A stretch of 44,613 nucleotides of DNA from Escherichia phage YD-2008.s, in the sequence record NC_027383.1, one strand, 5' to 3'. A program made the translations under genes and the position numbers. Numbering within the stretch: the stretch's first letter is position 1; every line of letters begins with the position of its first letter. The notes beneath the pieces are model-generated. The model had not been told where the DNA came from and made no database searches. It saw nothing but the letters and a program-made list of their open reading frames with translations. Positions 2 through 44,613 of the stretch are shown in pieces.

Positions 2-523
2 AACGTTCGCCCGGATGGTAAGAAAGCGCTCAAGATAGTCCGCACGAAGGCGAAGCATGACCCAACCTTCGACGAGGAGCGCGACGACCCGAACGCGGCG
101 GGGTGGTGGCTTAAAATTGAGTTGCCGTCGGGGCGCATCATGAGTTATCCGGGCATCGCGCTGTCTGTCACGACCGAGATCGACGAAGACACCGGCAAGA
201 AGCGCACCAGCACCCGCATTAAATACCAGGGCGAGAATCAGACGACGCGTCAATGGGGGTTCCAGTACACCTACGGCGGCAAACTGACAGAGAACATCGT
301 GCAGGCGCTGTGTCGCGATATCCTCGCATGGTCCATGCCGGGTGTTGAAGCTGCTGGATATGAGATCGTACTGTCCGTACACGATGAACTGATCACCGAA
401 GTGCCGGATACTGACGACTACACGACCGAGGAGCTTTGCGCGCTGATGTGCGACCTGCCTATTTGGGCGAAAGGCTTCCCACTTGCCGCGGAAGGCGATT
501 GTATGTATCGATACAGGAAGTAA
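2..523 (+). CDS. DNA polymerase, family A (Pol I/T7-like), C-terminal fragment; 5' part lies at 42859..44613
   Basis: Frame open from base 2 with no start upstream; translation contains ...YEIVLSVHDELITEVPD... consistent with family A motif C; stop TAA 521-523. Confidence 0.7.
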   Translation, partial: NVRPDGKKALKIVRTKAKHDPTFDEERDDPNAAGWWLKIELPSGRIMSYPGIALSVTTEIDEDTGKKRTSTRIKYQGENQTTRQWGFQYTYGGKLTENIVQALCRDILAWSMPGVEAAGYEIVLSVHDELITEVPDTDDYTTEELCALMCDLPIWAKGFPLAAEGDCMYRYRK

Positions 524-19267: not shown

Positions 19268-19650
19268 TTTATGCAGTTGCCGTCGGTCATTGTATCAGCG
19301 AATTTAAAACAAACCTTATTCAGTCTCAGACGAGGGGGGCCATTGACCCCCGTCTAGTCTGAAAGACTGGGCTTTGTCCCGCCTGTCCCGATCGGCTAAA
19401 ACCCGCGGCAGCACTGGCTGGGACAGGGGTGCTGTCCCGCTTTGTCCCGCCCAATTCTGCCCCGCTTTTTGTCCCGTTTGTTTTATGCAGAAAAACCGCA
19501 TAGCCATTCACTTTTGAGGGGTGGGACAGATCGGGACAGCACCCCCGTCCCGCTTTTAGTTTATGCAATGAAAGTGAGTATATATGCGGTTTAATGGTGG
19601 CGGGACAAAACGGGACGTCCCGCCTGTCCCGCTTCGTTATGCGGGGTTCT
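19268..19650. repeat. iteron-rich structured noncoding element A
   Basis: ~380 bp without a credible ORF; at least 12 GTCCCGC/GCGGGAC heptamers; hairpin AGACGAGGGGG...CCCCCGTCT; palindromes GGGACAGGGGTGCTGTCCC and CGGGACGTCCCG; core 19307..19480 is homologous to 35962..36135. Confidence 0.6.
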
Positions 19651-26403: not shown

Positions 26404-26624
26404 TTAATTATTTGCTGCAACTCCAGCACCTGCGCCCTTAGCTTCGCCCCGCATTCCATATTTTTCACGTCAATCATCAAATCCTCGTCGGGGTCTGCGG
26501 ACGGGCTATCGAACTTGCACGGCGGCCGCAGTGCCGACTCCGTTAGCGGCATCAACGGCACGTTGCTTGATCCGCACGCGCTCAGCATCAAAACTACAAT
26601 CAGGGCGGTTAGGGCGCGTAACAT
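26394..26624 (-). CDS. o-spanin (Rz1-like outer-membrane lipoprotein), putative
   Basis: 76 aa from ATG 26624; signal peptide with lipobox MLSAC; Pro-containing mature part; overlaps the i-spanin ORF out of frame. Confidence 0.4.
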   Translation of the reverse strand: MLRALTALIVVLMLSACGSSNVPLMPLTESALRPPCKFDSPSADPDEDLMIDVKNMECGAKLRAQVLELQQIIKGP

Positions 26625-35961: not shown

Positions 35962-36135
35962 TTATGCAGTCTCAGACGAGGGGGTGACAGACCCCCCGTC
36001 TAGTCTGAAAGACTGGGGTGCTGTCCCGCTGTCCCGCTCCTCGCCAGGCCGCGTCATCCGGGGCGGGACAGGGGTGCTGTCCCGCTTTGTCCCGCCTCCT
36101 GTTTGTCCCGCTTTTTGTCCCGCTTACTTTATGCA
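35962..36135. repeat. iteron-rich structured noncoding element B (homologue of 19307..19480)
   Basis: Same hairpin stem AGACGAGGGGG/CCCCCGTCT with a different loop; GGGACAGGGGTGCTGTCCCGCTTTGTCCCGCC shared block; about 7 GTCCCGC copies; bounded by TTATGCAG on both sides; AT-rich stretch follows. Confidence 0.6.
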
Positions 36136-36229
36136 GTTTTATTGCATAACTATTCATTATATTTACATTACACGGCAACCAATGCGACTAACTAAAAACA
36201 CGCAAAACGGCAACCAATGCGCGCAAAAT

Positions 36230-38500
36230 TTAATCTTTCAGGTCATCATCGGTCGCCGAAAGCGTAATGGGGATACCCGATTTGATAACTAAATTCGACG
36301 ACCCATAGATGGCCCCGGTGTGCGGATCTGTATAGAAACCAATCACGCCGCGCTCTACCATATCGTCAATTGCCTTCGTCGATGTGCCACCTTTCGCGAG
36401 TCCCGCCTGGCGGACGATTGCCGATTTGCTGAATCCGGTATGGTCCGGGTTATCTTCCATCAGCTTCTCCAGTGCTGCATAAAGCACTTTCTCTTTTTCG
36501 GTGCGCGGTCCGGCGGTGTTCTCTTCCTTAACTGCGGCTTTTCCTGCGGCCTTCGCCTGTTCTATAGCGAACGGTGCCAGGGCGACCGGTACGAGGTATA
36601 AAGTCTCGTCGCGCGGGGTGGACGCAATTGGTTTGACGTCCCAACCGGCAACTACGTCTCCGAAGTCCGGACCGGTGCTGGTGGACTGGTGCGACGCGAA
36701 CGCTTCTGACTTGCGGAGATCTATCGCCACCTTGCACTTGAGCAGGACGAAGCCACGCGGCGCTTGCTTGATGCCGTTACGTGATTTTTCGTGGTACAGG
36801 TTAAGTTGTCCCGGCTGGTTGTCGTCCGGCTGTTCCAGGAAGAAAGCGGAATCGACAGCGCCATGAAGCGCACCGGACCCGCGCGGGGATCTGCTGCCGT
36901 TTGCACCCTTCGCCGGGTGGTGGATGACGCCCGCACTGCCACCTGTATTTTCCGCAATGGCTTTCAGCGCTTTGACCACTTCACCCATATCGCTGGCGTT
37001 GTTCTCGTCAAACGGTTTAGCCTCGGCGGACCGCAGCGCAACAGTCTGGTTGAGTGAGTCGAACGCCACCAGGCCAACCGGTTCGCCGTTAGCGGTGCGG
37101 TTGATAAAGCTGATAACTTCGCGCAAGCCTGATTTGCTGGTGATATCCCAGCCGCGTGACTGCAGGTCTATAATGTGCAGCTTGTCCAGGTCGTGCTCAT
37201 ATTTAATCTGCAATGCTTCTTTACGCTGGTTGGAGGCTTCGCCACCTTCCGCGTCGAAATAGAAGCAATGAGACTGGACGACCTTCGCACCGCCGAACGG
37301 AATACCCGCGGCAACCGCACCCATCTGCCCCAGCACATAGAATGACTTGCCTATGTTCGACTCACCCGCCATGTACCAGGTCGATTTGAAGTTAATCAGA
37401 CCTTCGATGATCGGGTCGTGCTTACTGAATAGTGCGACCGGCTCGTTATCCAGGTCCGCATCGGTGCACACGCCGTATTCTTCGCCGTCTCCAACCGCAT
37501 CAACAATATGCTCATATAAGGATTCGACTTCCTCGTCGTCCAGCCCTGGAAGGATGGCGGCGATTTGCTTACGGGACATATTGTGTGGCTCGACGTTCAG
37601 GTGGTCCGGGATCCCGATAAGACGTAGCGCCAGGTGCTGGTGTCTATTCAGTTCCGAGCAACACTCGTTGCCGGTGTGCATACACTTGAAACGGATCTCG
37701 CCATCCTTAACCATGATAGCCGTCGACCCTTCGCCGCTGTGCAGATGTTCGTTCGGGCACGGCACTTCATAACCGCGACCGGAAGATAACTCCTCGAATC
37801 CTGCCTGGAAGCACCAGTCCAGAATACCGTCTGCCACTGCGTCGTCGCCCTGGGTAAGCTCGCGGCGTACTTCCTCTTTTTCCACCCCCAGCTTATCCGC
37901 CAGGCGGAGCAGACGCCGCACATTGGCACGTTTGCCGTAGTGGCACTTAATAACTGACTGCTGGTGTGGCAGGTACATCAGGCGGTTTGTGTCTTTCGTG
38001 CAATCGTCGAAGTCCACATCTGACAGACCAAGTTGGTGTAATAGCGCATACTGGACACGGCCCAGGTCTTCAGCCGGGACAGGCTTGTCAGTGAGTACCA
38101 GGAATCGAGCGCAACGCGTGCCGCCTTTCAGTGGGTGACGGTCGCCGGTGGTTGTGTGAAAAACGTGTTCAAGACCCGCGTCGATGAAAGCCTTACGGCA
38201 GCGGCGCAAGGTGCGAGTGTCGGTGCGGTCGATATCGAAGAACAGGATCGAGCGGTCCACCGCACTGGTCTTGCGGCGAAGGCCGTCACTGGTATATGCC
38301 ACGATGCCATCGGCCTTACGCTTGCGGCGCGCATACTCGGCTTTATCTTCCGTCTTATTGATATGCACCGAGGAGATTTCTTTCGCATCTTTGATAAATT
38401 CGAAAAATTCATCGGTGGTCATCTGGAAGTTTTCCGCCCTGGCTTTTTCGCCTTTTTTAGCGGGTCTTGTTACGGCGAATTTAATTAAACTCATGGTCAT
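36230..38500 (-). CDS. DNA primase/helicase (primase domain + P-loop NTPase)
   Basis: 756 aa; Walker A AGESNIGKS and Walker B-like VGLVAFDS in the central region; size and layout of phage primase-helicases. Confidence 0.75.
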   Translation of the reverse strand: MTMSLIKFAVTRPAKKGEKARAENFQMTTDEFFEFIKDAKEISSVHINKTEDKAEYARRKRKADGIVAYTSDGLRRKTSAVDRSILFFDIDRTDTRTLRRCRKAFIDAGLEHVFHTTTGDRHPLKGGTRCARFLVLTDKPVPAEDLGRVQYALLHQLGLSDVDFDDCTKDTNRLMYLPHQQSVIKCHYGKRANVRRLLRLADKLGVEKEEVRRELTQGDDAVADGILDWCFQAGFEELSSGRGYEVPCPNEHLHSGEGSTAIMVKDGEIRFKCMHTGNECCSELNRHQHLALRLIGIPDHLNVEPHNMSRKQIAAILPGLDDEEVESLYEHIVDAVGDGEEYGVCTDADLDNEPVALFSKHDPIIEGLINFKSTWYMAGESNIGKSFYVLGQMGAVAAGIPFGGAKVVQSHCFYFDAEGGEASNQRKEALQIKYEHDLDKLHIIDLQSRGWDITSKSGLREVISFINRTANGEPVGLVAFDSLNQTVALRSAEAKPFDENNASDMGEVVKALKAIAENTGGSAGVIHHPAKGANGSRSPRGSGALHGAVDSAFFLEQPDDNQPGQLNLYHEKSRNGIKQAPRGFVLLKCKVAIDLRKSEAFASHQSTSTGPDFGDVVAGWDVKPIASTPRDETLYLVPVALAPFAIEQAKAAGKAAVKEENTAGPRTEKEKVLYAALEKLMEDNPDHTGFSKSAIVRQAGLAKGGTSTKAIDDMVERGVIGFYTDPHTGAIYGSSNLVIKSGIPITLSATDDDLKD

Positions 38501-39103: not shown

Positions 39104-39616
39104 ATGTTTGAACAAATCGTAAACCTGATTACTCGCGGCGTAGTAGCACTGGAAACCATCGCTAAGCATTATGAAACCGTCGGCGCTGCCGTTGGTAAGC
39201 AGGAAGACAAGAAGCCGTCTAAGGCCAAAAAAGAAGTCGTAGAAGATGACGACGCTGAAGACGAAGCACCGGCGAAAACCAAAAAAGCACCGGCTAAAGG
39301 TAAGGCCAAAAAAGAAGTCGTAGAAGATGACGACGATGAAGAAGCCGAAGACGAAAAACCGGCGAAAACCAAAAAAGCTCCGGCGAAAGGCAAAGGCAAG
39401 AAAGATGCCGACCCGCTGGCAGAGATGCGCGACGAAATCAAACAGTATGCCGCGATTATCGCCGGTGGTGATGACGACGATGCCAACGACGAATTTGACG
39501 ACCTGCTGGAAGCGTTCGAGATCAAATCGATCGCAAAACTGGAAGATGACGACGTAGAAGACTTCCACAAAGATCTGAAAGAAATTGTAGAAACCTATTT
39601 CGAACTGGAAGACTAA
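39104..39616 (+). CDS. acidic/basic repeat protein (170 aa), first early gene
   Basis: Two ~27-aa tandem repeats KKEVVEDDD...PAKTKKAPAKGK; D/E-rich C-terminal half; followed by a terminator. Confidence 0.55.
   Translation: MFEQIVNLITRGVVALETIAKHYETVGAAVGKQEDKKPSKAKKEVVEDDDAEDEAPAKTKKAPAKGKAKKEVVEDDDDEEAEDEKPAKTKKAPAKGKGKKDADPLAEMRDEIKQYAAIIAGGDDDDANDEFDDLLEAFEIKSIAKLEDDDVEDFHKDLKEIVETYFELED
39222..39390. repeat. ~81-bp tandem coding repeat (2 copies) within the acidic protein gene
   Basis: GGCCAAAAAAGAAGTCGTAGAAGATGACGAC...CCGGCGAAAACCAAAAAAGC repeated. Confidence 0.55.
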
Positions 39617-39916: not shown

Positions 39917-40095
39917 TGAAATTTTTCGTGCTGGCAACATGCCACGAATTAGACGACCATTGCTCTTTTATTGTTGAAAACACTAATGCAAGCAATTGCT
40001 TTGTGGACGCACAAAACGAAGTTAAGCGCCGCGTCGAAAAAGCGGGCTTGGCGAATGTGAAATATGTAATTGTCCAGTTTACACGGGTGGAATAA
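39916..40095 (+). CDS. possible small protein (59 aa)
   Basis: ATG 39916 overlaps the upstream stop; its stop overlaps the exonuclease start; below track cutoff. Confidence 0.3.
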   Translation: MKFFVLATCHELDDHCSFIVENTNASNCFVDAQNEVKRRVEKAGLANVKYVIVQFTRVE

Positions 40096-41525
40096 TGGCG
40101 ATTAAACCAAAACGTAAAACGCAATCCGGTAGCAACACGGAACACTCATTACTCGGCCCATCCGGTGCTAAAAAATGGATGGGGTGTCCTGCCGCCCTGG
40201 TGGTGGAAAAAGATATCCCGAACGAATCCGGGCAAGCCGCGATTAACGGTACGAGTATGCACACCGTATCTGAAGTGGTGCTAAACCGCATTATCGCCGG
40301 TGAGAAGCTGATTACCGCGAAGACATATAAAGGGTGCTACGTCGAGAACGAAGGCAAGGGGCCGGTAAAGGCCCACCCGAAAGCACAGAAAGGCGGCGTA
40401 CTGGTCAACGACGATATGGTGAAGCAGTGCGATGCGTACATCGACCACTGGCGTCCGCTCCTTGAAGTGGCGGAGTTTGTCCAGCTTGAGATGCGCGCCG
40501 ATCTGACCCGCGTCCTTCACCCAGGCTTCGAGATCGACGGCAACCGGGTTAAGACGTTCGGTACCGCCGATATGGTCATGGTCATGAAGAAGACCGACGG
40601 CACGTACATGCTGATTGTTGGCGACCTGAAGACGGGACGACATAAGGTCGAGGCGAAAGAAAATAAACAGCTTATGCTGTATGCGCTCGGCCTGCTGCGC
40701 AAGCTGCAAACTATGTACGACATTACGACCGTTCGCCTGGTTATCTTCCAGCCGTATTGCGGCGGGGCGTCGGAGTGGGATATTTCGGTAGAAGCGCTGG
40801 AGATATTCGCGAAGTTTGCATCCAAGCGCGCTATTGCCGCACTGGAGGCGTATTCCCGAGGCAAGAAGGGACTCACCCGCGCTGACTTCCGGCCCAGCGT
40901 CGATGCGTGCCAGTGGTGCAGATTTGCGGACCAGTGCAGCATCCGGGCGAAGGCCGCAATCGACACGATGACACCACCAACGGCAACCGACGAAGACCTG
41001 GGCGACGACGTGAGTATCGCTACCGAGGAAGAATGCGCCAACCACGATCGCAATATGGCCCGCGAAGCCCGGAAGGCTGCTCGACGTGCTAAACGAGGCA
41101 AGAAGGAATCCACACCAGGCGCTATGAGCGCTGCGGAACTGCGCAAGGCTTATGAAGGCCTGGACGCAATGCGCCAGCACATCAAGGCTATCGAGTCCGC
41201 GGTATTCAAGGCGGTCATGGCGGGCGATGGCGAATCGCTGGGCCTCAAGATGGTTGCCGGTAAGGAAGGGATCCGGAAGTGGGCGGACGAGAGCGAAGTG
41301 ATTGAAATATTCACGAAGGCCCGGATTAAGCGCGATGTGATGTACAAAGAAACATTGCTCAGCCCGACAGATGCCGAGAAGGTACTGAAGGACGAAAAAC
41401 CGAAAGTGTGGGCAAAGCTGTGTGCTAAAATCACACGCGCACCCGCTAAACCGGTGTTAGCACCAATCGACGACCCGCGCCCTGCGTGGTCGGAGGCCAC
41501 TGACGAGGACTTAAGCAATGAATAA
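40095..41525 (+). CDS. PD-(D/E)xK exonuclease, Cas4/RecB-like with C-terminal Cys cluster
   Basis: 476 aa; ...GTADMVMVM...IVGDLKTGRHK... nuclease core; Cys cluster CQWCRFADQC; long charged C-terminal extension. Confidence 0.65.
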   Translation: MAIKPKRKTQSGSNTEHSLLGPSGAKKWMGCPAALVVEKDIPNESGQAAINGTSMHTVSEVVLNRIIAGEKLITAKTYKGCYVENEGKGPVKAHPKAQKGGVLVNDDMVKQCDAYIDHWRPLLEVAEFVQLEMRADLTRVLHPGFEIDGNRVKTFGTADMVMVMKKTDGTYMLIVGDLKTGRHKVEAKENKQLMLYALGLLRKLQTMYDITTVRLVIFQPYCGGASEWDISVEALEIFAKFASKRAIAALEAYSRGKKGLTRADFRPSVDACQWCRFADQCSIRAKAAIDTMTPPTATDEDLGDDVSIATEEECANHDRNMAREARKAARRAKRGKKESTPGAMSAAELRKAYEGLDAMRQHIKAIESAVFKAVMAGDGESLGLKMVAGKEGIRKWADESEVIEIFTKARIKRDVMYKETLLSPTDAEKVLKDEKPKVWAKLCAKITRAPAKPVLAPIDDPRPAWSEATDEDLSNE

Positions 41526-41760
41526 AGTATTCGCAATCTTATTGATGTTTTTGCTAGGCGCACTGGGCTTTATCCTGCATTGCGTGCAAGGCGTGTTAAT
41601 GGTGGCCTGGATGATTCGCCATCCGACCCGCTGGCTGGACGACGGCTATAGAGAAGCTGCCGTCGATTGGGTGGAAAAGAACATCGAACGCCCGCCGTTA
41701 AGCTGGATCGAGAACGCCGTCAACTACGTGACCAGAAATATTTTTAATAAAAGTGCTTGA
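41518..41760 (+). CDS. small membrane protein (80 aa)
   Basis: N-terminal hydrophobic helices AILLMFLLGALGFILHCVQGVLMVAWMI. Confidence 0.45.
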   Translation: MNKVFAILLMFLLGALGFILHCVQGVLMVAWMIRHPTRWLDDGYREAAVDWVEKNIERPPLSWIENAVNYVTRNIFNKSA

Positions 41761-41785: not shown

Positions 41786-41850
41786 GGCAACCAAGCCGAA
41801 CGGGGTGGCTCACAATAACCCCGATACATGTGAAAATGAGGAATTGGAAA

Positions 41851-42633
41851 ATGGCTAAAGTCAACCTGAAAAATGTGCGCGTATGTTTCCTTAATATTTG
41901 GGAACGTGATACCCCTAAACAGGCTGGACAAAAACCGGCATACCGCGCCGTGATTCTTCTGGATAAAGAAGATCCGCAGGTGGATAAAGTGGAAGCGGCA
42001 GCGCGCGCAGCGCTCACCGTCAAGCTGAAATCCGAGAAGAATGCCGATAAGTGGATGGACCGCCACTACGCCCAGGATTCTAAGGAATGCGCAGTCCGCG
42101 ACGGTGACGAGCGTGACGAAGTAACCGAAGAATTTGAAGGCATGTTGTACATCAACGCCAAATCGTTCAAACAGCCGAACATTCAAACGTCACTCGGCGA
42201 GAAGCAGACGGAACAAGGTCTGACTGTAGAAGGCGACGAGATCGAAGGCCAGGAGATCTACTCCGGTTGCTATTGCAATGTGTCCCTGGATATTTGGGCG
42301 TGGAACAATACCAACGGCAAGGGACTCGGTGCTGGCCTTTTGGGTCTGCGCTTCCGTGATGACGGCGAAGCCTTCGGCGGTGGCGGTTCTTCTTGCTCCG
42401 ACGAAGACCTGGGCGACGATGACGAAGATGAACGCCCGCGCAAGTCCAAAAAGTCAAAACGTCGTGATGACGATGACGAAGACGACAAGCCGCGCAAGTC
42501 CAAAAAGTCCAAGCGCCGCGATGACGATGATGATGACGAAGACGAGAAACCTCGTAAACGTCGTAAGCCACGCGATGACGAAGATGAGGACGACGACGAA
42601 GACGAAGCGCCACGTAAACGTCGCCGCCGTTAA
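41851..42633 (+). CDS. putative single-stranded DNA-binding protein with repeated acidic/basic C-terminal tail
   Basis: Start at ATG 41851 with GAGGAA RBS (track start 41830 rejected); N-terminus MAKVNLKNVRVCFLNIWE... resembles phage SSB-like proteins paired with Cas4-like exonucleases; C-terminal tail has four repeats of (D/E)n-PRK(S/R)KK. Confidence 0.5.
   Translation: MAKVNLKNVRVCFLNIWERDTPKQAGQKPAYRAVILLDKEDPQVDKVEAAARAALTVKLKSEKNADKWMDRHYAQDSKECAVRDGDERDEVTEEFEGMLYINAKSFKQPNIQTSLGEKQTEQGLTVEGDEIEGQEIYSGCYCNVSLDIWAWNNTNGKGLGAGLLGLRFRDDGEAFGGGGSSCSDEDLGDDDEDERPRKSKKSKRRDDDDEDDKPRKSKKSKRRDDDDDDEDEKPRKRRKPRDDEDEDDDEDEAPRKRRRR
42412..42630. repeat. ~54-bp tandem coding repeats (4 copies) in the SSB-like gene 3' end
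   Basis: GATGACGA(T/A)GA...CCGCGCAAGTCCAAAAAGTC...CG(T/C)CG(T/C) repeated. Confidence 0.55.
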
Positions 42634-42652
42634 GGGCAAAGCCCACTATTCA

Positions 42653-42676
42653 AGCCCGCTTAATGCGGGCTTTTTA
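42653..42676 (+). terminator. intrinsic terminator
   Basis: AGCCCGC ttaat GCGGGCT followed by TTTTT. Confidence 0.6.
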
Positions 42677-42691
42677 ATAGGACAATGAAAA

Positions 42692-42862
42692 ATGCGCATT
42701 AAAGCCAGCGAAGTAAAAGTCGGAATGCAGGTATGGTCTAAACTGCTGGGCGAGTATTTCACCGTTGCCGAGATTCGCAACAACGGCGAGGAGATAACCC
42801 TTTCCGACGGTATCTTCTCCATGATCGGCAGCGCCGACGCCGTAGTGAGGATTAAGCAATGA
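42692..42862 (+). CDS. possible small protein (56 aa) upstream of the polymerase
   Basis: ATG 42692; stop TGA overlaps the polymerase ATG; below track cutoff. Confidence 0.3.
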   Translation: MRIKASEVKVGMQVWSKLLGEYFTVAEIRNNGEEITLSDGIFSMIGSADAVVRIKQ

Positions 42863-44613
42863 AAGACTTCGAACGCCTGTTTCTCGATACCGAGACATTT
42901 AGCGGGGTAGACCTGAAGAAAGTTGGCGCATACGCCTACGCAGAGCACCCGACAACCGAGATTATGATTTGCACCTACGCCATCGACGAGGGCCGCGTGC
43001 AGACATGGGATTGCACCGAGTCCCCAACAATGCCGCGTGAACTGCGCAAGGCGCTCCGCAGGGTATCCCGCAAGAAAGCAAAAATAGTGATGGCTAACGG
43101 CCTCCTGTTTGACCGCCTGGTCATTCGCGAGAAGTGGGGCATTGACCTGCCAGTGTGCCAGATCGAAGACACCATGATTATGGCCTTTCGACACGCGCTG
43201 CCGGGTGGCCTCGATATGCAGTGCCAGGTGTTGGGCGTTGACGCAGAGCACGCGAAGGATAAGGCGGGCAAGGCGCTGATCAAACGATTCTGTAAGCCAA
43301 CCCCTAAGACCTACAAAATCCGCCGCTACACGCGCGAGACGCACCCCGAGGAGTGGGCTAAATTCCTGCGCTATGCCGCGTTGGATATCATCGCTATGAG
43401 GGAAGTCTATTGGCGCATACCGGACTGGGGTAACACGCCGAAGGAAGACGAAATCCTGCTTATCGACCAGTTGATCAATGACCGCGGCTTCTATGTGGAC
43501 GTTGACCTGGCGCGCGCTGCGATCAAAGCGGTACAGGCGCATAAAGAAGAATTGAAGGAAGAAGCCTGGGAGCGCTTCGGCGGTAAGCTGACAGGCAATG
43601 ACTTCCTGCCAGCGCTGCGGGACCTCGCGCCTGCGTTCACAATCCACAACGCGCAGAAATCCACGCTTAACGACCTGCTGGAAGATCCAGACTTCCCCGA
43701 AGAGGGCAAAGTGCTTATCGAGATGCGCCTCGGTGCGTCATCCACGGCATCGACTAAGTACAATCCGCTCGTTAATGGCCTATCCGCCGATGGTCGCCGC
43801 CGTGGGTGTCTTCAGTATGGTGGGGCAAAGCGCACGCTACGCTGGGCCGGTAAAGGCTTCCAGCCGCAAAACCTGGCGCGTGGCGAGTATAGCGACGACC
43901 ACGAAGGGAAGATTAAACGCCGTGAAGGCGAGAGCGACGTCGCGTTTTGGGTGCGGTCGCACATGCTCACCAACGGCATCAACTCCCTGTTACGTGGGAC
44001 AGCGCACTGGGCGTATGACATATCGAAGCTAACGGCCTCGACCGTTCGCGGGTGCATTATTCCAGCGAAGGGTAAGAAGTTTGTCGTAGCGGACTATTCT
44101 AACGTGGAAGGGCGTGGCCTCGCCTGGATCGCTGGTGAGAAAACCGCGCTAATGGTGTTTAGGGCCGGTCGCGACATTTATTGTGAGACTGCCGGTAAGA
44201 TGTTCGGCCTTGACCCGGAATACATTAAAGCCAACCGCAAAGACCTACGCCAGATTGGTAAGGCGTGTGAGTTGGGACTTGGCTATGGCGGCGGCGTGGC
44301 TGCGTTCTTGCAGTTCGCTAAAAACCTGGGCCTCGACCTTTACGCGATGGCGGACGTAATGAAGGGCACATTCCCCGATCACATTTGGGCAGCGGCTAAA
44401 CGGGGTTATGAGTACGCCCGCATTAACGAAGCGAAGCGACCGCCGAAGCCTGGCAAGAAGGACGAGCGCCCGACTTACATACTGCCGAAAAACGTATGGC
44501 TTACGTGTGATGCGATTAAACGCATGTGGCGAGAGGCGCACCCGAAGACGGTAGCCTTTTGGGCCGAGCTTGAGGACGCGGTGTTGTGTGCAATCCGCAA
44601 TCCTGGCAAAGCG
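42859..44613 (+). CDS. DNA polymerase, family A (Pol I/T7-like), N-terminal 585 aa; runs off the window end
   Basis: 3'-5' exonuclease motif LFLDTETFS, polymerase motif A VVADYSNVEGR, motif B RQIGKACELGLGYGGG; no stop before base 44613. Confidence 0.85.
   Translation, partial: MKDFERLFLDTETFSGVDLKKVGAYAYAEHPTTEIMICTYAIDEGRVQTWDCTESPTMPRELRKALRRVSRKKAKIVMANGLLFDRLVIREKWGIDLPVCQIEDTMIMAFRHALPGGLDMQCQVLGVDAEHAKDKAGKALIKRFCKPTPKTYKIRRYTRETHPEEWAKFLRYAALDIIAMREVYWRIPDWGNTPKEDEILLIDQLINDRGFYVDVDLARAAIKAVQAHKEELKEEAWERFGGKLTGNDFLPALRDLAPAFTIHNAQKSTLNDLLEDPDFPEEGKVLIEMRLGASSTASTKYNPLVNGLSADGRRRGCLQYGGAKRTLRWAGKGFQPQNLARGEYSDDHEGKIKRREGESDVAFWVRSHMLTNGINSLLRGTAHWAYDISKLTASTVRGCIIPAKGKKFVVADYSNVEGRGLAWIAGEKTALMVFRAGRDIYCETAGKMFGLDPEYIKANRKDLRQIGKACELGLGYGGGVAAFLQFAKNLGLDLYAMADVMKGTFPDHIWAAAKRGYEYARINEAKRPPKPGKKDERPTYILPKNVWLTCDAIKRMWREAHPKTVAFWAELEDAVLCAIRNPGKA

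Follow-up and report, generated by a model that had tools for sequence, protein, structure and literature searches.

A short acidic peptide recurs in the replication and recombination proteins of Escherichia phage YD-2008.s (sequence record NC_027383.1), which we analyzed as a single stretch of 44,613 nucleotides, hereafter the window. Three non-homologous protein families in the window carry this motif: an exonuclease, a protein that binds single-stranded DNA (the SSB), and a replicative primase-helicase. The consensus is [A/C]-[S/T]-D-[D/E/A]-D-L-x-[D/N]-[D/E], with acidic residues arranged around one hydrophobic anchor. An initial annotation of this DNA had proposed a common docking peptide in the exonuclease and the SSB, and the evidence, though indirect, now supports that idea well: the motif is enriched, confined to replication proteins, located in predicted disordered segments of the exonuclease and SSB, conserved as an island within them, and co-varying between exonuclease and SSB. 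Because a conserved, co-varying, acidic-hydrophobic peptide is present in three replication/recombination proteins, we interpret it as a docking motif for a common receptor, and a functional shared docking motif in this general sense is very probable. The window represents nearly the whole genome of a Dhillonvirus-like E. coli siphophage, with DNA 92–94% identical to that of KarlBarth, SSL-2009a, and others. The carriers and their motif copies are the following (aa, amino acids; nt, nucleotides).

40095..41525, plus strand: exonuclease gene, 476 aa; Pfam DUF2800 (E = 2e-65) and PDDEXK_1 (E = 3e-8), PHROG 69 'exonuclease'.
41830..42633, plus strand: SSB/annealing protein of the Enc34 (T7 gp2.5) type; Pfam PF10991 (E = 9e-32).
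36230..38500, minus strand: replicative primase-helicase gene, 756 aa; Pfam AAA_25 (E = 2e-19), PHROG 3228 'replicative helicase-primase'.
40986..41009, plus strand: motif in the exonuclease linker, TDEDLGDD (aa 298–305), containing one copy of a 22-nt repeat (40987–41008).
41499..41522, plus strand: motif at the exonuclease C-terminus, TDEDLSNE then stop, from translation.
42397..42420, plus strand: motif in the SSB, SDEDLGDD (aa 190–197), containing the other copy of the 22-nt repeat (42398–42419).
36233..36253, minus strand: motif at the primase-helicase C-terminus, TDDDLKD then stop, from translation and homologue alignment.
37442..37465, minus strand: possible fifth motif copy, in the primase-helicase, TDADLDNE (aa 346–353), just before the helicase domain.

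The pattern [ST]D[DE]DL had only four occurrences in all six frames of the window, and 4/4 were in replication proteins (exonuclease linker, exonuclease C-terminus, SSB, and primase-helicase C-terminus). The relaxed pattern [ST]D[DEA]DL occurred five times in 52 open reading frames (ORFs), again always in replication proteins, compared with 0.095 occurrences expected from composition, and 0/5000 within-protein shuffles reached five. The motif-bearing peptides of the carriers are PPTATDEDLGDDVS, WSEATDEDLSNE, LSATDDDLKD, and SSCSDEDLGDDDE. The fifth D[DE]DL hit of the window, at 26489 on the minus strand, was judged unrelated: the S/T is missing, and the surrounding ORF is lipoprotein-like (lipobox LSACG).

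The motif behaves as short linear motifs do, being a conserved island in disordered, otherwise variable segments (the exonuclease linker, and the SSB after its Gly-rich hinge) and recurring in non-homologous proteins of one pathway. The exonuclease consists of an N-terminal PD-(D/E)XK Cas4/RecE-like nuclease domain, a disordered linker, a C-terminal domain, and a short tail. AlphaFold confidence (predicted local distance difference test, pLDDT) was ~90 for residues 20–268, <50 for 269–344, ~77 for 345–465, and low for the tail, and Foldseek matched the N-domain to Cas4-family, AdnA, AddB, and RecE nucleases. The linker copy had a pLDDT of 34–39 with a one-turn helix at 299–302. In the homologue alignment, only A297, D301, and L302 were invariant within the indel-rich linker, and W465, D470, D472, and L473 were invariant at the end of the protein. 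D[DE]DL was found within the last 8 residues in 118/120 exonuclease homologues (54–98% identity), and the linker copy was lost in some lineages among 34 IMG/VR loci.

The SSB probably starts at ATG 41851 (MAKVNLKNV, with GAGGA upstream). Profile matches in the PDB were 5ODJ, 4JG2, and 4KLK, and Foldseek returned 4KLK/5ODL (E = 1e-12 to 1e-11) and T7 gp2.5 (1JE5, E = 1e-6) as well as 5ODJ and 4JG2. Its oligonucleotide-binding (OB) domain, residues 9–180, had a pLDDT >90, and the disordered acidic C-terminal region was near 50. The motif (pLDDT ~56) follows directly after the OB fold and a GGGGSS hinge, and in SSB homologues down to ~40% identity the OB fold is immediately followed by x-[ST/N]-D-[DE]-D-L-x-D-D. 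Across the family this position reads acidic-(F/T)-acidic-acidic-(L/I/V), becoming F-x-[DE]-L/I in distant homologues, whose extreme C-terminus is often another acidic-hydrophobic tip (DDDDI, DDDDF, even DDDIPF). The remainder of the protein is as follows.

42421..42630, plus strand: SSB tail, in which acidic and basic blocks alternate ((D/E)n-PRKSKKSKRR-like), ending RRRR; pLDDT ~50.

This tail is a block polyampholyte with four acidic runs against PRKSKKSKRR-like basic runs and no acidic-hydrophobic tip. Its repeat number varies among relatives (proteins of 218–269 aa), and distant relatives keep the repeats yet end DDDDI/F/L/V/Y. In both the exonuclease linker (AREARKAARRAKRGKK, 40986–41110) and the SSB (RPRKSKKSKRR, 42397–42465), the acidic motif is followed within 5–25 residues by a strongly basic stretch, and the motif unit may be bipartite, acidic plus basic. 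Two database SSBs from related phages, P0125 and P0130, switch into an overlapping alternative frame that is open in the window (136-aa ORF, 42278–42688, +1), one right after the motif (...DDDLGD, then AMTKMK...VKGKAHYSSPL...) and P0130 upstream of it. The switch could be a genuine frameshift variant, or it could stem from indel errors, the tract being repetitive and GA-rich.

The primase-helicase C-terminus, SATDDDLKD-stop (here and below, -stop marks the protein end), had escaped the initial annotation. Nearly all of 120 primase-helicase homologues (43–98% identity) end in ...(D/E)x(D)L plus 1–4 residues. The internal copy is conserved as C[TQH]D[EAF]DL[MDE]D[EA]P within an indel-free conserved stretch. 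The helicase had been suggested as one possible receptor, but because it has the motif at its own C-terminus it is a carrier rather than a likely receptor. The motif search in relatives that the initial annotation had called for found the motif kept in exonuclease, SSB, and primase-helicase homologues alike.

We collected 80 distant loci with a 17-sequence SSB sub-alignment, adding SETP3, Scapp, Enc34, phiFL4A, and phi2958PVL, and located the point where the OB fold ends and the SSB tail starts by aligning an anchor peptide locally to each SSB. For each genome the exonuclease tail was compared with the tail of its own SSB, keeping the highest BLOSUM62 score of any ungapped 7-mer pair, and partners were then permuted. 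Motif copies co-occurred in the same genomes (34 IMG/VR loci), and across 42 dereplicated lineages, including Firmicutes phages and Enc34, the mean score was 21.7 versus 16.8 for permuted partners. None of 50,000 permutations reached the observed sum (p ≤ 2e-5), although the lineages are related and not fully independent, which makes the p-values indicative rather than exact. The result was the same within 36 F-type lineages (variants such as DEFDDL and DDFDEL) alone. Polymerase and SNF2-helicase C-termini scored 8–9 and showed no association with their own SSB motif. An unbiased scan of the C-termini of 1790 ORFs for matches to the SSB motif placed 20/34 exonucleases among the 60 best, compared with 0/29 SNF2 helicases and 0/16 polymerases. 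The agreement within genomes extends to fine detail.

Locus L072: SSB DEFDDLD; exonuclease DEFDDLD-stop.
Locus L046: SSB DFGEDEDE; exonuclease DFGDDEDE-stop.
Locus L071: SSB SEFDDES; exonuclease LEFDDES...
Locus L068: SSB FDVVD...DDLV-stop; exonuclease FDVVE...EDLV-stop.
Scapp: SSB DDFDELD; exonuclease SDFENLE-stop; primase EEFEELE-stop.
phi2958PVL: SSB SAAEDDFDEL; exonuclease SAEDDFDKL-stop.
Enc34: SSB DAYDEDEDEWDEDEV-stop; exonuclease GAYDDEDEDDDEV-stop; primase DPFDDEDEV-stop.

Hafnia phage Enc34 (L120, 568–10334) has five replication-module proteins with near-identical acidic tips: primase ...DPFDDEDEV-stop, ORF3 ...GEEEEV-stop, exonuclease ...DDEDEDDDEV-stop, SSB ...EWDEDEV-stop, and SNF2 helicase ...IWDDEED-stop. 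Its polymerase and VRR-NUC endonuclease have no such tip. In several 55–65 kb phages (L039, L042, L044, L045, L052, and L070; IMG/VR), an ORF of 130–250 aa shares the extreme tip of its own SSB, as in L042 (ORF ...EEEDDVV-stop, SSB ...DDDDVV-stop) and L045 (ORF ...EEDDLLS-stop, SSB ...DDLLG-stop, exonuclease ...SDLLG-stop), suggesting a second shared tip motif in these phages.

The DNA encoding two of the motif copies is itself repeated. The initial annotation had described near-identity of about 22 of 23 nt, and alignment of the segments showed the identity to be exact, with CCGACGAAGACCTGGGCGACGA forming a direct repeat of 22/22 nt at 40987–41008 in the exonuclease ORF and 42398–42419 in the SSB ORF. 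Both copies are in frame, and translation bore out the (T/S)DEDLGDD peptide at 40986–41009 and 42397–42420 as well as the exonuclease end TDEDLSNE-stop at 41499–41525. Against random DNA the repeat exceeds chance: the longest exact repeat was 13–18 nt in 200 order-2 Markov simulations of the window. At the protein level, it is barely credible that acidic low-complexity tracts merely look alike by chance and have no function in common. Both proteins are rich in D/E runs and the region contains several D/E-rich DNA repeats, but the shuffles never yielded the five motif occurrences, the Leu and neighboring Asp are invariant over 43–98% identity, and the same-genome co-variation comes with negative controls.

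The initial annotation had also proposed that the motif spread by micro-recombination, with a short DNA tract copied between the exonuclease and SSB genes. Such gene conversion would fit a repeat longer than any simulated one between genes just 1.4 kb apart, and the six identical codons for DEDLGD have P = 0.0055 under genome-wide codon usage, given both peptides. That probability rises to 0.04 when the codon frequencies are taken from internal motif copies of independent lineages; these favor GAC and CTG. The DNA flanking the two copies shows no similarity. Among 14 close Dhillonvirus relatives, the exact run between the two sites was anywhere between 10 and 24 nt long, with no correlation between the synonymous variants of one site and those of the other (exonuclease ACC/ACA/ACT versus SSB TCC/TCA). 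In 22 distant lineages with matching peptides, the same codon was used at 53/101 shared residues, against 51.2 expected from codon usage. Since codon sharing matches this expectation, run length varies, and variants are uncorrelated, the signal lies in the peptide and the 22-nt identity is largely a by-product of that peptide being written in favored codons, and we regard gene conversion as very unlikely. Codon choice differs between internal and C-terminal copies: Leu was CTG in 22/28 internal copies versus 5/19 C-terminal copies (Fisher p = 7e-4; motif sites of the window and L001–L035), the latter mostly using TTA/TTG. The last codons of the exonuclease (GACGAGGACTTAAGCAATGAATAA) double as the GAGGA ribosome site and ATG (41518) of ORF 41518–41760.

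Our first choice for the receptor of the docking motif, a tentative one that we place just short of even, is the basic face of the SSB's own OB fold that binds single-stranded DNA (ssDNA). In crystals of Enc34 ORF6, 4JG2, 4KLK, and T7 gp2.5, a C-terminal segment lies in the concave sheet of a neighboring molecule (PMC5686142), and the segments lying in the groove carry motif equivalents (SDAYDED, ADDFTTI, and SDFGDL). The gp2.5 tail competes with ssDNA for its own cleft according to the cited T7 literature. Gp2.5-like proteins act as recombinases together with an adjacent RecE-like exonuclease, with annealing in vivo (PMC2896510), and lambda Exo binds the annealase Red beta and loads it on the new 3' overhang (PMC6393309). 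With the SSB, the exonuclease (twice), and the primase-helicase (once or twice) all presenting the motif as a docking tag in flexible linkers and tails, these carriers would compete for the same basic site in the replication/recombination machinery, much as the acidic tails of T7 gp2.5 and gp4 do. The ssDNA-producing enzymes (exonuclease and helicase) would hold free SSB through their tails, and emerging ssDNA would displace the DNA-mimicking tail, handing the SSB/annealase onto the ssDNA. The SSB's own motif copy could serve head-to-tail self-association or autoinhibition.

It is possible, though we hold it with some doubt, that the duf2800-gp2.5-polA gene module, to which these genes belong, reverses the usual SSB-hub logic: enzymes that make or use ssDNA would carry copies of the SSB acidic tail peptide that plug into the SSB cleft as a hand-off device, and the peptide would co-evolve with the cleft and set cognate exonuclease-annealase specificity. 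The carriers under this logic would be the exonuclease and primase-helicase and, with the same doubt, the SNF2 helicase and a small ORF in Enc34.

Several points weigh against these interpretations. The tail-in-groove contacts are crystal contacts between SSB molecules, and the SSB cleft is filled by ssDNA when the protein is on DNA, so the interaction would need free SSB. AlphaFold monomer models, which are weak evidence in this respect, show neither the SSB motif docked in cis on the OB domain nor the exonuclease copies docked on the exonuclease itself. Primase and primase-helicase tails resemble the SSB motif, and their permutation test was not significant (n = 11, p = 0.15), with some of the 'primase' ORF picks in that set probably wrong. 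Judging from its sequence context, the internal primase-helicase copy may have a structural role and not be a free motif. What experiments in T7 have proven is docking of tails to the polymerase (PMC8472574), and the polymerase of the window has a basic cluster at the corresponding position.

42859..44613, plus strand: family A DNA polymerase, of which aa 1–585 fall before the window end; no motif, candidate receptor.
2..523, plus strand: the C-terminal part of that polymerase, after a gap of ~5 codons between window end and window start; begins with the basic cluster GKKALKIVRTKAK.

A strict T7 model, in which the basic patch of the family A polymerase is the common receptor and the SSB, primase-helicase, and exonuclease are tethered to it, is a possibility we take seriously without finding it probable; it would couple unwinding, SSB displacement, and end/flap processing to synthesis. 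The acidic tails of T7 gp4 and gp2.5 bind basic patches of gp5 (PMC8472574), among them the front patch K587/K589/R590/R591, seen in PDB 6P7E with the peptide DTDF (PMC12339929). The two T7 tail sequences finish in ...EEADEDGDF-stop and ...SNDTDF-stop. In the alignment, GKKALKIVRTKAK corresponds to this front patch, and its retention by the Dhillonvirus polymerase counts for the polymerase and against the cleft. The polymerase here is free of the motif, as expected of a receptor, polymerase C-termini never match it, and polA is a constant member of the module (PMC8093625). However, the second place at which T7 gp5 binds tails, its thioredoxin-binding insertion, is missing from the polymerase; the basic cluster is only loosely conserved in Enc34 and Firmicutes phages; and T7 needs a C-terminal Phe with a free carboxylate, while here a Leu serves as anchor and two to three of the copies are internal. 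The polymerase is also the slowest-evolving partner (60–70% identity where the SSB has 45–52%), and because the motif changes quickly and by lineage, the strict T7 model fits less well. By analogy with T7, both receptors, SSB cleft and polymerase, may be usable. The tails might alternatively be independent autoinhibitory DNA mimics, each folding back to cover the surface with which its protein binds DNA, and alike only through DNA mimicry. The gp2.5 tail does occupy its own cleft, and removal of the Enc34 ORF6 tail alters DNA selectivity, but generic mimicry fails to predict parallel fine detail in two proteins per genome (EFDDES, DFGEDEDE, FDVV...DLV), and AlphaFold leaves the exonuclease copies undocked; we consider this improbable. 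Similarly improbable, if not a shade more so, is host mimicry, in which the motif imitates the bacterial SSB tip and recruits host SSB-interacting proteins or another conserved host protein. The F-type variants resemble the DFDDDI of the E. coli SSB acidic tip (MDFDDDIPF), and distant homologues end DDDDDIPF and EEDEIPF (P0210 and P0232). The window motif, by contrast, has no Pro-Phe-COOH and is internal in two or three copies, the co-variation links two phage proteins, and enterobacterial phages differ widely (TDEDL, DFDEL, AYDEDED), which favors a fast-evolving, and therefore phage-encoded, receptor over a conserved host one.

The T7 acidic-tail network is comparable to the system described here in its homologous SSB fold (1JE5, E = 1e-6), in disordered acidic tails with a hydrophobic anchor, in having the same kind of tail on the SSB and the primase-helicase C-terminus, and in a family A polymerase whose basic cluster sits where T7 has its front patch. 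It differs in that the window anchor is Leu followed by 1–3 residues, or internal, rather than a terminal Phe-COOH (among distant SSB relatives the last residue can be F, I, L, V, or Y). The window SSB motif stands at the start of the tail, not its tip, and the tail goes on as acidic/basic repeats to RRRR; the window exonuclease has two copies, while T7 gp6 has no such tail; the window polymerase has no thioredoxin-binding insertion; and the window primase-helicase is AAA_25/RepA-like, not of the gp4/DnaB type. Closer in family are Enc34 ORF6 (5ODJ) and the DUF2815 proteins 4JG2 and 4KLK, which belong with the window SSB in PF10991 and place the motif-equivalent segment just after the OB fold in the neighbor's concave sheet (PMC5686142); there the contact is known as an SSB–SSB crystal contact only.

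The bacterial SSB tip (DDDIPF) is likewise an acidic-hydrophobic docking handle at the end of a disordered SSB tail, and some distant members of the window SSB family end DDDIPF. One such tip fits the pockets of many partners, whereas here the partner enzymes carry the SSB-like peptide. The window SSB ends RKRRRR, with its motif internal, rather than in Ile-Pro-Phe-COOH, and among SSB homologues only the distant P0210 and P0232 end in IPF. The lambda Exo-Red beta and RecE-RecT pairs share with the window a PD-(D/E)XK 5'-3' exonuclease fold whose gene adjoins that of an ssDNA-annealing protein. Cognate-specific pairing is expected in such exonuclease-annealase pairs, and a co-varying tail could supply it. 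In lambda a folded three-helix annealase domain sits on the exonuclease body, whereas the arrangement proposed here would be a disordered exonuclease tail on the annealase/SSB.

The gene arrangement of the window corresponds to the known duf2800-gp2.5-polA module (PMC8093625). It comprises the primase-helicase on the minus strand (36230–38500), a helix-turn-helix protein, and on the plus strand a charged-repeat protein (39104–39616), two small ORFs, the exonuclease (40095–41525), a small membrane ORF, the SSB, and the polymerase. The SNF2 helicase of the window lies at 1289–2713. The window ends cut the genome inside the polymerase gene (window end ...NPGKA, window start NVRPDGKK...), and ~15 nt (YWAGA in SSL-2009a) are absent at the 44613/1 junction. 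The 39104–39616 product, upstream of the exonuclease, is conserved and of unassigned function (PHROG 3127), with two 30-aa charged repeats (KKEVVEDDD...PAKTKKAPAKGK) and an acidic-aromatic C-terminus ...TYFELED-stop; homologues of other lineages end KYYE[LIV]ED-stop. Its conserved C-terminal part also contains DEFDDLLE, identical to the F-type motif of distant SSBs and exonucleases, which looks like part of a conserved helical domain and was not counted as a free motif.

A direct repeat of ~200 nt occurs in two intergenic regions (19321–19500 and 35967–36150; 82% identity, exact blocks ≤35 nt). In each copy, several TGTCCCG(C) boxes come after a stem-loop rich in GC (CAGTCTCAGACGAGGGGG...CCCCCGTCTAGTCTGA). 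The two copies are situated upstream of gene blocks on the minus strand, one of them just downstream of the primase-helicase stop. The repeat may combine a terminator with a promoter region that binds a regulator, or it may be an origin. Just past the same stop is ACGGCAACCAATGCG, an exact 15-nt direct repeat at 36172–36186 and 36207–36221 with 35-nt spacing. The polymerase ORF is ~300 aa longer in some relatives (L002, L005, L031, and L036/SETP3 loci; 1032–1069 versus 763 aa), and the annotation of the SETP3 SNF2 helicase includes a Hint domain. These features suggest that inteins or homing endonucleases have inserted into replication genes in this group; the window copies have no such insertions.

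A limited literature search found no paper on a tail shared by SSB, exonuclease, and primase in the duf2800-gp2.5-polA module; a prior description is possible. To our knowledge, replication of Dhillonvirus, Jerseyvirus, and Enc34-type phages, and the module broadly, is without biochemical study. The module occurs in hundreds of phages of Proteobacteria and Firmicutes. The window provides a clean example of a conserved peptide giving rise, as a by-product, to an exact nucleotide repeat in two genes. The shared, co-varying tail motif amounts to a concrete map of likely contacts among the replication proteins of these phages and would broaden the acidic-tail principle of T7 to include a recombination exonuclease. 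It also suggests a way in which the exonuclease and annealase of a cognate pair recognize each other, and is relevant to choosing and engineering Gp2.5-type recombineering systems and to defence systems that sense phage SSBs.

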